From IMG/VR virus record IMGVR_UViG_2737471993_000002: 64,000 nucleotides of DNA; one strand, given 5' to 3'. This document shows, piece after piece, positions 23,123 to 26,275 of the stretch. Below the pieces are notes generated by a model. The model was not told the origin of the DNA. It ran no database searches and saw only the letters and a list, made by a program, of their open reading frames with translations. A program made the position numbers and the translations under genes. The DNA is from a virus. Taxonomy: Duplodnaviria > Heunggongvirae > Uroviricota > Caudoviricetes. Within the stretch, counting starts at the first letter, position 1. Each line of letters begins with the position of its first letter.

Positions 23123-23409
23123 GCAATTTAACTTCTTGGGACTGGTGGTTGGCCACCTATTGCTTAGCGGCCGGAGTCGCATTCGCCTTTTACGTAGGTC
23201 AGTTAGTCGTAAAACTGTTGCTGATTAAATTTGCTAGTCATAAACGTATCGATGATGGTCTGTGGCGTCTTGGCACCCTGGTGGAAACTCGCTACGGGCA
23301 ACTTAAGGAGAACGAAACCATTACTATCCAAGCGAAACGATTCACTGCCACCATCACAAGAACACCTAGTCGTAGAGTGGCCTTGATCAAAAAAGTCACA
23401 ACCGAATAA
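23119..23409 (+). CDS. Small membrane protein (96 aa), paralog 3
   Basis: N-terminal TM helix and LWRLGTLVETRYG motif related to the two preceding peptides. Confidence 0.5.
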   Translation: MSNLTSWDWWLATYCLAAGVAFAFYVGQLVVKLLLIKFASHKRIDDGLWRLGTLVETRYGQLKENETITIQAKRFTATITRTPSRRVALIKKVTTE

Positions 23410-23420
23410 AAACACAATAA

Positions 23421-23439
23421 TAAGTATTTACTTACTTAT
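23421..23439. promoter_or_regulatory. Palindromic operator-like motif (TAAGTATTTACTTACTTAT)
   Basis: Same half-sites as the recurring motif family; lies just after the stop at 23409. Confidence 0.35.
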
Positions 23440-24187
23440 CTTTTATGTATAAGATGACTTTGTTTTCGTTGAGACGCGACTGTTTGAACTTAAATACAAG
23501 TGCAAACGAAGAAGTCTATCTGGCAGTAGCCTAATAAGCCAAACACCAGCGAGGTCAGTTTCCAGCCTCGTTACCGAAATGGGACACACTGAGCGAGTGT
23601 GATTGCAGAACGCAGGAGGGAACATGAGTGTTCCCTCCGATGAAGTAACAGAATGGGCGGTCGGTATATTTTCAACTCCATATGACTCCCGGATTCTTAG
23701 CCTCTGACCGCCCATCCTGTTACGTCATTTTGTTCAATTATGTCGTTTATACTGGGTTAAAAAGCGGCGACGTAGCCCGGCTGGTATGGTTAGCCAGCAC
23801 ACAACGTTGAGGCCATTACATTTTTATCAATTCTAAGGTTCTATTCACAGAGATACCGGCGAGCGTTGATATGTAACATGTTGGGCAAACATTCAATCGG
23901 AGTAGTGGCCTCAACGTTGTGAAGACAGGATTGTTGTGTAGGTTTAACCACTGTTGCCATTGGTGCCTGTTTTCACAACAAATGATTCCATACATCACAT
24001 TGTATAAATTACAAAGTAGGTGCTGTCCTCAGAAACATCATCTACTTAAAGATTTTGCCTTCTACTATTGAGCGAAGTCGAAAGCGTCTGGCACTAACGA
24101 AAAGTGCAAGTAGCGGTGCGTTTCCTGGCAGAAACTAAACCGTCGCGATTGGCACTGTTGAGTAATAAATACTGGCAGTGCCGAATT

Positions 24188-24262
24188 GATGGTGTAGCTC
24201 AGCGGTAGAGCAGTTGGCTGTTAACCAACTGGTCGGTGGTTCGAATCCACCCACCATCGCCA
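24188..24262 (+). tRNA. tRNA-Asn (anticodon GTT)
   Basis: Acceptor stem GATGGTG/CACCATC, anticodon loop CTGTTAA, T-arm GGTGG-TTCGAAT-CCACC, discriminator G and encoded CCA. Confidence 0.8.
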
Positions 24263-24267
24263 ATTTA

Positions 24268-24354
24268 GGGGAGTTAGTCCGTAGAGGTAGCGGTGTAGAC
24301 TGTAAATCTACTGTCATTGCGACTCGGGTGGTTCGACTCCATCACTCCCCACCA
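24268..24354 (+). tRNA. tRNA-Tyr (anticodon GTA), long variable arm
   Basis: Acceptor GGGGAGT/ACTCCCC, anticodon loop CTGTAAA, long variable arm, T-loop GGTTCGACTCC, encoded CCA. Confidence 0.75.
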
Positions 24355-24358
24355 AATT

Positions 24359-24434
24359 GCCGGTTTAGCTCAGTTGGTAGAGCGCCTGCCTTGTAAGCAG
24401 GATGTCAGCGGTTCGAGTCCGTTAACCGGCACCA
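24359..24434 (+). tRNA. tRNA-Thr (anticodon TGT)
   Basis: Acceptor GCCGGTT/AACCGGC, D-arm GCTCAGTTGGTAGAGC, anticodon loop CTTGTAA, T-loop GGTTCGAGTCC, encoded CCA. Confidence 0.8.
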
Positions 24435-24658
24435 ATACAACGATAAGATCATTACGGTTAATCGTCGTTCATGTGCACAATGACTGGTCGAAAGGTAGTG
24501 ATCTTACCGTTGTGGTGGATTCGCAGACTGATGCGATAGCTTTCTTGGATGTTAGGGAAATGCGGCCGCAAATCTTCCCTTTCGCGAGCGGTGATCGTCC
24601 GTAGTCCTAATTGGCTGCACCGTATGCCGGAGATTCAGTACCGGCCACCACAATGGCC

Positions 24659-24745
24659 GGAGAGTAGGGAGCATGGTGCTCAAGCGGTCTTGAAAACCGT
24701 CCCATTGCGCAAGCGATGATGGTTCGATTCCATTACTCTCCGCCA
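24659..24745 (+). tRNA. tRNA-Ser (anticodon TGA), long variable arm
   Basis: Acceptor GGAGAGT/ACTCTCC, anticodon loop CTTGAAA, long variable arm, T-loop GGTTCGATTCC, discriminator G plus CCA; D-arm is atypical. Confidence 0.6.
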
Positions 24746-24747
24746 GA

Positions 24748-24825
24748 CACAGCGTTGAGCGGTTTGGCCTTTTAATCAACCAGATTAAGACTCCGCTAAC
24801 ATAAACCAGACCGCTCAACGCTGTG
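24748..24825. repeat. Long inverted repeat immediately 3' of tRNA-Ser
   Basis: 20-bp arms CACAGCGTTGAGCGGTTTGG / CCAGACCGCTCAACGCTGTG around a ~38-nt loop; arm sequence is related to the inverted repeat at 23798-23921. Confidence 0.6.
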
Positions 24826-24900
24826 ATAGACAATTACGGCAGACGTACTTAACCATAGCTTGCTAACATCCTAGCAACACTTTTTTTCAGCGCAAAATTC

Positions 24901-24924
24901 AAAGGGGCTTCGGCCCCTTTTTTG
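24901..24924. terminator. Bidirectional rho-independent terminator
   Basis: GGGGC-TTCG-GCCCC hairpin flanked by A-run upstream and T-run downstream; between tRNA cluster and convergent minus-strand gene. Confidence 0.75.
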
Positions 24925-24940
24925 AAAGCAATGGGCAAGT

Positions 24941-26275
24941 TCATGCCAAATTATCCAGATTTCTTTTCTTTTTTTCAATTATATTTCTCGCGCCAGAAAA
25001 AATTTTACTCAAAATAATTGGTTTGCTTGCTCTATTATTAAGATGTAACAACGCGCTATAAAATACATAGTTATCTATTTTACTATTTAAGGTATTCCCA
25101 AGCTTCCCGTTATATGTGCTATTAATAGTATTAAAATATACATGTTCAGGACCTATATTACAAATACCCCTATCAACTCGCTTTAAATAATGTTTAACTA
25201 AAGAAATAGCATCTTCCTTATCATTAATAACATAAAGTCCTGAGCGTTTACCTAGCTTGCTGTCCGAGAATAATTTATAACCAATAAGTTCATTTAACGT
25301 ATTATCCACTTTTGTCAACTCTTTGTTGGCAATCTCCAGATAATACTCAATCTCTTTCTCCATATTACTTATTAAAGAGTTAAATTCTGCTCGTAACAAA
25401 TCACCACCAGGTGATTTATAACTCCATAAAATTGAATTGGTAATACGTACTACGTCAGATATTTCTGGTTTCTCTGAATAGTTTTTGTATCTAGTGCAAA
25501 TAATGCTGTGCTTTATATATTCTCTAACTAATGATCGATAATCCCTTTCGAAAAGGTTTTTGACATCTAGTCTTCCATTGCTTGTTGTTATTAGGGTGGT
25601 GTTTAAAACTGGGTCGCCTTCAAAAAAATTATATTTATTTAGTAATCGTTTTAGCTTGTGTGAATTATGTGATGTTTCGCCATAATAATTTATCCCAAAA
25701 ATAGCAATTATTAGCATAACATCAGGAGTGATGAAATGTCGTAATTGCTCGGCATAAACTTTTTTCTCTTCGATTTTCGAAGATGGAGAGTAAAAACCTT
25801 TGTCTATATATTCTAATATTGAAACAATATTACTAACATAACGTATAAAAACTTGATTCATTACAACGGAATCATAAACCTGATGCAAATAATCTACTCT
25901 CAAGTTGTTTTTTATTTTTTCCCCTGTACTAGATGATAACTCTTCTTTTACCTGCCCAAGTAGCTTTTCGTGGTGCTCCAGCAATGTTTTAAACCATTGT
26001 TCAAATGATGATTTTCTTGCCTCAGTTAATGAATCTGATGTTATCTGGACAGCTTTCATAGCTGCTTTCGCACTTTTCTTTGCTTCATAAGCGTTCCATG
26101 CTGTAGCACAAAAAGCTGCCGCCGTGATGCAACTGGTAAAAATAGAAATCCTATCTGCAACATTCAAGCTCCAGAACCAATCAGACGATGAAATCAAAAC
26201 CACAGATATTACGGGAACAATGAAAATCAAAACAGGCATGTATGTACTCGCTCTAATAGTTATTAGTCGAGGCAA
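24941..26275 (-). CDS. AT-rich membrane-anchored protein of unknown function (candidate accessory/defence gene)
   Basis: 444 aa (alternative start at Met13); two N-terminal TM helices then large soluble domain; AT content far above the flanks; next to tRNA cluster and recombinase. Confidence 0.5.
   Translation of the reverse strand: MPRLITIRASTYMPVLIFIVPVISVVLISSSDWFWSLNVADRISIFTSCITAAAFCATAWNAYEAKKSAKAAMKAVQITSDSLTEARKSSFEQWFKTLLEHHEKLLGQVKEELSSSTGEKIKNNLRVDYLHQVYDSVVMNQVFIRYVSNIVSILEYIDKGFYSPSSKIEEKKVYAEQLRHFITPDVMLIIAIFGINYYGETSHNSHKLKRLLNKYNFFEGDPVLNTTLITTSNGRLDVKNLFERDYRSLVREYIKHSIICTRYKNYSEKPEISDVVRITNSILWSYKSPGGDLLRAEFNSLISNMEKEIEYYLEIANKELTKVDNTLNELIGYKLFSDSKLGKRSGLYVINDKEDAISLVKHYLKRVDRGICNIGPEHVYFNTINSTYNGKLGNTLNSKIDNYVFYSALLHLNNRASKPIILSKIFSGARNIIEKKKRNLDNLA

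Follow-up and report, generated by a model that had tools for sequence, protein, structure and literature searches.

A family of long-stem hairpins in a phage tRNA operon

The window analysed here, a 64-kb stretch of DNA (64,000 nucleotides) from the virus record IMGVR_UViG_2737471993_000002, contains a transfer RNA (tRNA) operon in which two long inverted repeats, called hairpins A and C below, had been singled out by the initial annotation as related elements bracketing the tRNA block. The source of the window is an SSU5-like phage-plasmid of E. coli: the 23400-25100 segment is 99.3% identical to Escherichia phage CMS-2020a over 90% of its length and shows a piecewise identity of ~97-98% to phage Cyrano. 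About 1.5 kb around hairpins A and C is devoid of any credible protein gene. The features found there lie all on the + strand, in the order possible promoter, leader with a tag-like reading frame, hairpin Z, hairpin A, tRNA-Asn, tRNA-Tyr, tRNA-Thr, hairpin B, tRNA-like element, tRNA-Ser, hairpin C and terminators (Table 1). We infer from the sequence that the 23460-24900 region is transcribed as a single + strand unit, which would probably end at the terminator-like hairpins within 24860-24924, where Rfam aligns a terminator-like stem only.

Both inverted repeats are real, with arms slightly longer than first reported. The two arms of A, like those of C, are 95% complementary, the single exception being a U·G pair on the + strand. 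Folded as RNA, hairpin A reaches -47.8 kcal/mol (z = -6.7) and hairpin C -41.2 kcal/mol (z = -10.9), and none of 200 dinucleotide shuffles of either was as stable. No other 20-bp stem whose loop is 200 nt or shorter occurs in the 64 kb, and the longest of the remaining stems has 18 bp. The motif CACARCGKTRAG has five exact matches in the window, every one within 23800-24825; when one mismatch is allowed, seven matches are found versus 1.9 expected, a number reached in 0 of 100 shuffles. The likeness between the elements spans the entire arm (consensus CACAACGnTrAG-nnC-AYTkG), and the homology of A and C, suspected from the shared start of their arms, is supported. The idea that they flank the tRNA block holds in part. 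Hairpin A indeed lies upstream, 266 nt before tRNA-Asn, and hairpin C begins 2 nt past the CCA of tRNA-Ser, but two further relatives, both absent from the initial annotation, are found inside the block (hairpin B) and further upstream (hairpin Z), and the elements therefore do not simply bracket the tRNA cluster. The stem of hairpin B consists of 12+7+3 bp with single-base interruptions (z = -3.8) and, when extended, begins inside the CCA of tRNA-Thr. Hairpin Z, the first hairpin past the leader, has a stem of ~24 bp (z = -5.8) and matches, in position and sequence, a leader hairpin of the P1 type, CACAACAGGTAAGGGCGC. About 20 bp of largely unbroken double-stranded RNA is thus present in A and C, in B with its interruptions, and in Z.

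A covariance model was built on 29 diverse copies of the hairpin. Within the 64 kb, it matched at Z, A, B and C only, and scored higher on the + strand at all four (A, 55.8 bits versus 39.5 on the - strand; B, 51.4 versus 30.4; C, 50.1 versus 39.2; Z, 19.3 versus 16.5). A, B, C and Z are four copies, in this window, of one conserved family of long-stem hairpins, characterized by a near-perfect stem of ~20 bp, a conserved base (CACAACGUUGAG/CUCAACGUUGUG), a covarying upper stem and a loop of 25-100 nt. In the alignment of the 29 copies over the 20-bp stem, 91.7% of the cells are paired versus 78.3% in shuffles (0 of 500 shuffles reach 91.7%), and sliding the partner columns by 1-3 positions lowers pairing to 37-61%. 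Compensatory, two-sided changes are found at 15 of the 20 stem pairs, in 80 cells. The basal 12 bp are conserved in sequence and stem positions 13-15 are free to vary; at position 17 the U·G wobble is commonest (15 U·G, 8 C-G and 3 U-A). Compensatory changes in the upper stem distinguish hairpin A itself (GGCCATTAC/GTAGTGGCC) from its orthologues in Klebsiella phage-plasmids (GACCACTGG/CCAGTGGTC) and in SSU5 (GGTCACTG/CAGTGGCC).

Across 70 related phage loci, the model identified 181 sites, corresponding to 102 distinct sequences of 48-134 nt. Family hairpins adjacent to tRNAs are found in the P1-like phages P7, D6 and Ro157c2YLVW, in the Klebsiella siphovirus KlebP_265, in Salmonella phage STGO-35-1 and in the Ackermannviridae phage Klebsiella P01. 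P1 and P7 carry them in the leader of the ban operon, and lambdoid prophages (mEp460, E. coli JJ1887) in the immunity region, with no tRNAs nearby. An independent set of 100 viral loci was fetched by a 16-mer of the leader tag, a criterion unrelated to the hairpins: the model matched 31 of the 59 loci with a tag frame versus 0 of the 41 chance matches to the 16-mer, and in the 31 loci with hairpins the first of them typically starts +110 to +121 nt from the resume codon. In E. coli genomes, a lambdoid-type hairpin query gave no match by megablast and, in a sensitive search, short matches only, in 387 of 5426 genomes; among the 25 records listed these fell at unannotated positions, and the one region inspected is a prophage. 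An exact A-type pattern had only 4 matches in species-representative genomes, in Pantoea and in metagenome-assembled genomes, a scan that says little more than that the family is rare outside Enterobacterales phages and prophages. Rfam holds no family for the hairpins or for the tRNA-like element of the window, even at E values up to 10. The only match of the Rfam YrlA family is a weak one on the T-arm of tRNA-Tyr, and no Ro60/TROVE gene is found among the five flanking proteins, the only ones scanned.

Strand and position point to an RNA element. G·U pairs occur in the stems on the + strand only, and fold energies prefer this strand for A, B and most other copies, C in the window being an exception. 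Among the 139 sites with a tRNA within 1.5 kb, 138 have all such tRNAs on their better-scoring strand. The start of 20 distinct hairpins falls between -2 and +2 nt relative to a tRNA CCA end, in most cases as CCA-N-hairpin, and 59 of the 102 distinct hairpins are directly followed by the signature G(G/A)TG(A/G)A(A/T/G) and a small hairpin. In some prophages that have no promoter in front of the leader, the end of a family hairpin coincides with the position where the leader RNA of promoter-bearing phages starts, or precedes it by 12-14 nt, as expected if the hairpin marks a processing site.

Table 1 Features of the tRNA operon and its borders (positions in the window), followed by examples at other phage loci
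Feature	Position	Strand	Description
Small open reading frame (ORF)	ends 23409		upstream border of the non-coding stretch; downstream of an ATP-dependent DNA ligase gene
Possible sigma-70 promoter	23427-23453	+	TTTACT, 15 nt, TATAAG; read from sequence; weak
tmRNA-messenger-like leader	23462-23537	+	tag from GCA 23502 to GCC 23531; stops TAA TAA 23532-23537
Tight hairpin outside the family	23615-23638		GGAGGGAACAtgagTGTTCCCTCC
Hairpin Z	23640-23728	+	GTAACAGAATGGGCGG.../...CCGCCCATCCTGTTAC; divergent
Small hairpin	23780-23798	+	GCTGG-9 nt-CCAGC; abuts hairpin A; read from sequence, predicted in whole-leader fold
Hairpin A (23800-23921)	23800-23819 / 23902-23921	+	20-bp stem; U·G at stem position 17; structured 82-nt loop
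Small element	23916-23979	+	14-bp closing stem GTTGTGAAGACAGG / CCTGTTTTCACAAC; inverted-repeat search and whole-leader fold
Tight hairpin outside the family	24151-24182		GGCACTG...CAGTGCC; directly before tRNA-Asn
tRNA-Asn(GTT)	24188-24262	+	ARAGORN; Rfam
tRNA-Tyr(GTA)	24268-24354	+	ARAGORN; Rfam
tRNA-Thr(TGT)	24359-24434	+	ARAGORN; Rfam
Hairpin B	24432-24518	+	ACAACGATAAG.../...CTTACCGTTGTG; between tRNA-Thr and tRNA-Ser
tRNA-like element	24510-24653	+	follows hairpin B; closing stem UUGUGGUG/CACCACAA
tRNA-Ser(TGA)	24659-24745	+	ARAGORN; Rfam
Hairpin C (24748-24825)	24748-24767 / 24806-24825	+	20-bp stem; U·G at stem position 17; 38 nt between arms
Weak terminator-like hairpin + T7	24860-24887		read from sequence
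Strong terminator, probably bidirectional	24901-24924		GGGGCttcgGCCCC flanked by A/T runs; read from sequence
ORF, 444 aa	24941-26275	-	convergent on the tRNA operon; ends just past the terminators; AbiC-like
Tag frames elsewhere	L008 (P7) ~2046; L028 ~2280; L030 ~2281; L006 ~4088		
T-arm-bearing hairpins, examples	L007 2605-2694; L029 3342-3428; L071 7964-8067		L007: GGGTTCGAATCCC

The tag-like leader, the tRNA-like elements and a shared basal strand

The operon opens with a leader that resembles the messenger part of transfer-messenger RNA (tmRNA). Its tag frame has no start codon and encodes ten residues, ANEEVYLAVA, followed by two stops; the SsrA tag of E. coli is ANDENYALAA. We collected 21 distinct phage-type tags, among them ANDDLMM(A/V)AA in P1-like phages and ANEEMYLAVA and ANDDVVLMAA elsewhere. 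Their length is 10 codons without exception, and a hydrophobic residue followed by (A/V)A closes each of them, with the pattern AN(D/E)xx(L/M)x(A/V)A and the third codon positions most variable; the length of the ATG frame that overlaps the tag frame varies from 5 to 12 codons. In KlebP_265 and STGO-35-1, homologues of the leader lie behind strong promoters, and in P7 the homologue lies behind the C1-controlled ban promoter region. The 23427-23453 sequence of the window was not called by a consensus promoter scan; its position matches that of the near-consensus promoter (TTGACA-17-TAGATT) located before the homologous leader in KlebP_265 and STGO-35-1, and it is a weak candidate for the promoter of the operon.

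The leader shares with tmRNA, especially with the two-piece permuted form, a 10-codon tag frame starting at GCA, the stops, and weak matches to Rfam models (tmRNA_permuted and beta_tmRNA), yet these matches all remain below threshold, at best 15-24 bits versus gathering scores of 47-84. ARAGORN reports the tag at relaxed thresholds only, 70% of default for the window and 80% for four of six related regions; neither at default nor at relaxed thresholds does it find a consistent tRNA-like domain, and the relaxed predictions differ between homologues. A search for an acceptor stem followed by CCA gave no conserved candidate. The reading as a full tmRNA was rejected: the tag is as expected, but the scores lie below gathering and a tRNA-like domain, with its G3·U70 pair and CCA, could not be located, so that we do not call the leader a tmRNA. 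We also considered the hairpin as the acceptor stem of a circularly permuted tRNA-like domain, and dropped this idea because no CCA follows the 5' arm; moreover, the T-arms that some hairpins carry inside the loop (see below), just before the 3' arm, correspond to the normal and not to the permuted topology, and the conserved U·G is therefore no equivalent of G3·U70. A literature search found no report of a tag-like leader frame.

Most family hairpins are followed by a tRNA-like element. Members of this second family, including the element of the window and copies at L008 3246-3363 and L029 3524-3738, are built from an 8-bp closing stem (UUGYGRUG/CAYCRCAA), a gap of 2-3 unpaired bases, a D-like hairpin and a variable middle, with a T-like hairpin placed directly against the closing strand. 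In the window, the D-like hairpin is TCGCAgactgaTGCGA and the T-like hairpin GCCGG-10 nt-CCGGC; one copy of the family has a canonical GGTGGTTCGACTCCAC T-arm. The closing stem carries compensatory changes, from U-A to C-G in 5 sequences and from G-C to A-U in 1, and it alone was recovered by RNAalifold, because the variable middle does not align. Upstream, the small hairpin abutting hairpin A sits where the tRNA-like elements have their T-like hairpin (a comparison made by eye), and the 14-bp stem of the small element behind hairpin A re-uses the 3' base of that hairpin.

The hairpins and the tRNA-like elements compete for one strand. The 3' basal strand of the hairpin, CGUUGUGGUG, doubles as the 5' half of the closing stem in the tRNA-like element that comes next, and hence has two alternative partners, the hairpin's own 5' base or CACCACAA, ~130 nt downstream. 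In P7, all three segments have changed in concert (GCGCAACG / CAUUGCGGUG / CACCGCAA), and the downstream partner is retained even where no further hairpin follows, for instance before tRNA-Ser in the window. The minimum-energy fold of 24430-24660 forms the hairpin and not the closing stem. Such a three-way pairing constraint provides a reason for the conserved base that requires no sequence-specific protein.

The same architecture as that of the tRNA-like elements following family hairpins is displayed by STnc100 (RF02076), a prophage-encoded, expressed RNA to which the prophage small RNAs PasD are related. In Klebsiella phage P01, a copy of STnc100 above the Rfam gathering score is directly followed by a family hairpin; the Rfam model itself does not contain the hairpins. 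The relationship with the element of the window is one of shared architecture only, as the STnc100 model gave no match to 24495-24665 up to E = 10. The STnc100 and PasD papers that we consulted mention neither the hairpins nor a likeness to tRNA.

Probable exchange of RNA modules between phage-plasmid families

The initial annotation also raised the possibility that A and C mark the two ends of a mobile cassette made up of the entire tRNA block. This is contradicted by the existence of four family members and by relatives with different tRNA complements, in which the tRNAs change and the flanks do not move as one block. Cyrano has Asn-Thr-Ser, without tRNA-Tyr, without hairpin B and without the tRNA-like element; between Thr and Ser, CMS-2020a (strain SCU-175) carries an insert of 490 nt that contains P1-type hairpins; in Klebsiella relatives the order is Asn-B-Ser; and SSU5 has Z, A and Asn only, without C. 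Hairpin A is constant through the relatives compared, hairpin C is present, among SSU5-like relatives, exactly where tRNA-Ser is, and tRNA-Tyr is gained or lost between Asn and Thr with no hairpin involved. A and C are therefore not the two ends of one unit.

Two segments of the operon are closely related to P1-like phages. The 24497-24768 segment (tRNA-like element and tRNA-Ser) is 95.6% identical to P7, and the 24184-24453 segment (Asn-Tyr-Thr) is 91.5% identical to Ro157c2YLVW. Both end in hairpin arms, and no other match was found in the surrounding DNA when the window was compared with these two phages. These similarities indicate a recent exchange of RNA modules between P1-like and SSU5-like lineages, in which single modules, rather than the whole block, appear to have been shuffled at hairpin repeats. 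Because the hairpins are the only sequences that the modules share, they have probably also served as incidental points of recombination, which would probably explain the mosaic module content of related phages. For the same reason, breakpoints located in hairpins are weak evidence for a dedicated mechanism. No direct repeat, and thus no target-site duplication, is seen in the sequences flanking Z, A, B and C.

The tRNA complement varies among close relatives and P1-like phages (L001 (Cyrano), L009, L010, L012), tRNA-Tyr being present or absent and Arg(TCT) replacing Asn. Such variation would fit selection by tRNA-targeting host nucleases. The genes downstream of the tRNAs differ as well, since Cyrano, the Klebsiella phage-plasmids and SSU5 each carry others there. 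In the window, the ORF at 24941-26275 gives a weak match to putAbiC, a putative abortive-infection domain (21.4 bits, just below the cut-off of 22), and beyond it, 2 kb from the hairpins, lies a tyrosine integrase gene that matches the generic phage integrase family (PF00589). The region 3' of the tRNAs may be a variable slot for defence or accessory genes.

A proposed role in RNA processing

We propose, with middling confidence, that A and C, together with B and Z, are RNA punctuation marks that fold during transcription and are cut by RNase III; their transcription, their cleavage and its consequences are predictions made from the sequence. E. coli RNase III is known to cut perfect double-stranded RNA of ~20 bp; among its products is the prophage small RNA DicF, and it processes the polycistronic transcripts of phage T7 at a set of hairpins that are related to one another. 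With two turns of near-perfect double-stranded RNA, the hairpins of this family should be natural substrates of the enzyme. In the proposed pathway, each hairpin would fold as it is transcribed and insulate the folding of the adjacent tRNA or tRNA-like module, while its ~two turns of perfect duplex would serve as an entry site for host RNase III. Cleavage in the middle of the stem would split the precursor into modules and leave on the upstream tRNA a short 3' trailer, to be trimmed by exonucleases. It would also free the 3' basal strand (CGUUGUGGUG), which could then pair with CACCACAA and close the acceptor-like stem of the next tRNA-like element.

The closest known systems are the RNase III hairpins of T7 and T3 (R0.3, R0.5, R1.1) and the RNase III stems that flank the rRNAs and spacer tRNAs of rrn operons. 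As in T7, related hairpins of about two turns, which are not terminators, are repeated along a transcript between its units. The T7 sites, however, have internal loops and lie between mRNAs, whereas the stems of the present family are nearly perfect and abut tRNA CCA ends or tRNA-like RNAs; the present hairpins also differ from those of T7 by their large and variable loops and by a basal strand that can pair with the next module, and their cleavage is predicted. A non-coding operon mixing tRNAs with small structured RNAs made from a common precursor recalls the tRNA cluster of phage T4, where the stable RNAs species 1 and 2 (rnaC/rnaD) are co-transcribed and processing is carried out by RNase P and RNase E; unlike the pathway proposed here, T4 processing is not known to rely on long hairpins.

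Several points weigh against RNase III punctuation. Recognition of double-stranded RNA alone does not explain the conserved basal 12 bp. The three-way pairing constraint does not obviously fit hairpin C, after which no tRNA-like element comes, and explains hairpin A only weakly, through the small element behind it that re-uses its 3' base. The candidate promoter in the window is weak, its spacer being 15 nt long. The total fold of hairpin C is marginally better on the - strand (-43.2 versus -41.2 kcal/mol), the G·U pair of its stem and the model score nonetheless favouring the + strand. Finally, T-arms in the loop of 10 of the 102 distinct hairpins suggest that some of them may be tRNA-like RNAs themselves.

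This last point leads to the main rival explanation, which we regard as unlikely, namely that the hairpins are stable functional small RNAs, mini tRNA-like molecules derived from tRNAs whose acceptor-like stem has become very long, and whose neighbours would be released by RNase P and RNase E. Such RNAs could, for example, decoy or bind the enzymes that recognize tRNAs or the defence nucleases that target them. The T-arms in question are canonical (4-bp stem and TTCRANY loop); shuffled loops are expected to yield 0.065 of them, none is found on the reverse strand, and six of the ten sit 1-4 nt before the 3' arm, as in tRNA, which suggests that the hairpins derive from tRNAs. The conservation of the U·G wobble at position 17 and of the stem-base sequence, the size range of the hairpins, and their neighbours, tRNAs and tRNA-like elements including the expressed and stable STnc100, are all consistent with this explanation. 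Most loops, however, those of B and C included, have no T-arm and are unrelated to one another, the hairpins encode neither a 3' CCA nor a single-stranded end of the acceptor type, and a perfect 20-bp duplex is unlikely to outlast RNase III in E. coli. The initial annotation had offered processing or termination as possible functions, and processing is the more plausible of the two, given the tRNA strand, the covariation, the spacing from CCA ends and the absence of a U-tract. Although strong hairpins stand at the edges of the tRNA block, we consider it very improbable that they are terminators or attenuators bounding a tRNA transcription unit: no U-tract follows A, B or C (the sequences there are AAGACAGG, GGATTCGC and ATAGACAA), a terminator scan does not call the hairpins, B is located inside the block, and hairpins followed by T-runs are found downstream. 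Furthermore, the hairpins of P1 and P7 precede the protein genes of the ban operon, which are necessarily transcribed through them.

Two other explanations place the function of the repeats in DNA. They might be recombination sites that bound exchangeable single modules, a narrower form of the mobile-cassette idea, acting through short homology or site-specifically, possibly as extruded or single-stranded hairpins in the manner of the attC sites of integrons, imperfect palindromes (57-141 bp) whose centres vary and whose outer boxes are conserved. The blocks common to unrelated phage families stop in hairpin arms, close relatives differ in module content at hairpins, and a tyrosine integrase gene is near. 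The outer CACAAC...GTTGTG loosely recalls the R''/R' boxes (RYYYAAC/GTTRRRY), so that the conserved outer boxes with AAC...GTT and the location at module boundaries are reminiscent of attC. Direct comparison nevertheless led us to reject attC: in the outer bases (C)ACACAAC / GTTGTG(A), AAC and GTT are present but RYYY and RRRY do not fit, and the stems are continuous, without the extrahelical bases that define attC folding. The integrase matches only a generic phage family, we saw no integron integrase, attI or Pc, and the sites carry as payloads RNA genes whose transcription would pass through them. Strand asymmetry and strict co-orientation with the tRNAs point to RNA, the hairpins occur in phages of quite different families, including Ackermannviridae, tRNA-Tyr comes and goes without hairpins, and the evidence from breakpoints is weak; we thus give little credence to dedicated recombination sites. 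Still less probable, and disfavoured, is a chance insertion around tRNAs of miniature inverted-repeat transposable elements, which would share with the hairpins terminal inverted repeats with a common outer sequence, a size of 70-130 bp and the presence of several copies. The copies of the window share one operon and one orientation, the rest of the 64 kb has none, target-site duplications are lacking at Z, A, B and C, and no relative has an empty site lacking just the hairpin. Unrelated interiors combined with covarying stems argue for selection acting on pairing, and not on a transposase-binding sequence.

As punctuation by RNase III, the hairpins look like a variation on a known theme in the processing of phage polycistronic RNAs; the system that surrounds them, with its tag-coding leader and its tRNA-like elements, is more unusual. 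Apart from the STnc100 and PasD papers, the searchable literature yielded nothing relevant, and we found no earlier description of the hairpins in it, older papers in subscription journals not being excluded. Annotated phage records show nothing, or small ORFs, at the positions of the hairpins. Small ORFs that are probably spurious cover tRNAs or family hairpins in OV696614 (CYRAN_40 of phage Cyrano), NC_018843 (the 'C-type natriuretic protein' of SSU5) and JQ182728 (mEp460_037).

A bolder reading, speculative and in our judgement unlikely, is that the hairpins are integral switches for maturation and for the choice of acceptor helix in an unrecognised phage non-coding RNA system composed of the tag module, tRNA-like RNAs and tRNAs. 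Such a system would be present in P1-like, SSU5-like, lambdoid and other enterobacterial phages, would require the hairpins as more than spacers, and would give the phage a means of manipulating the quality control of host translation (ribosome rescue and tagging) or of countering tRNA-targeting defences. Whether these phages interfere with host trans-translation, or replace it, is a question that the tag-like leader raises. The annotation of phage non-coding regions, at present crowded with spurious small ORFs, would benefit from covariance models of both the hairpin and the tRNA-like element. If the proposed role is true, a conserved RNA punctuation, absent from phage annotation and from Rfam, organizes the tRNA and small-RNA operons of well-studied temperate phages; it would provide a testable maturation route for phage tRNAs and STnc100-type small RNAs, and would offer an account of the shuffling of tRNA and small-RNA modules from one unrelated phage-plasmid family to another.

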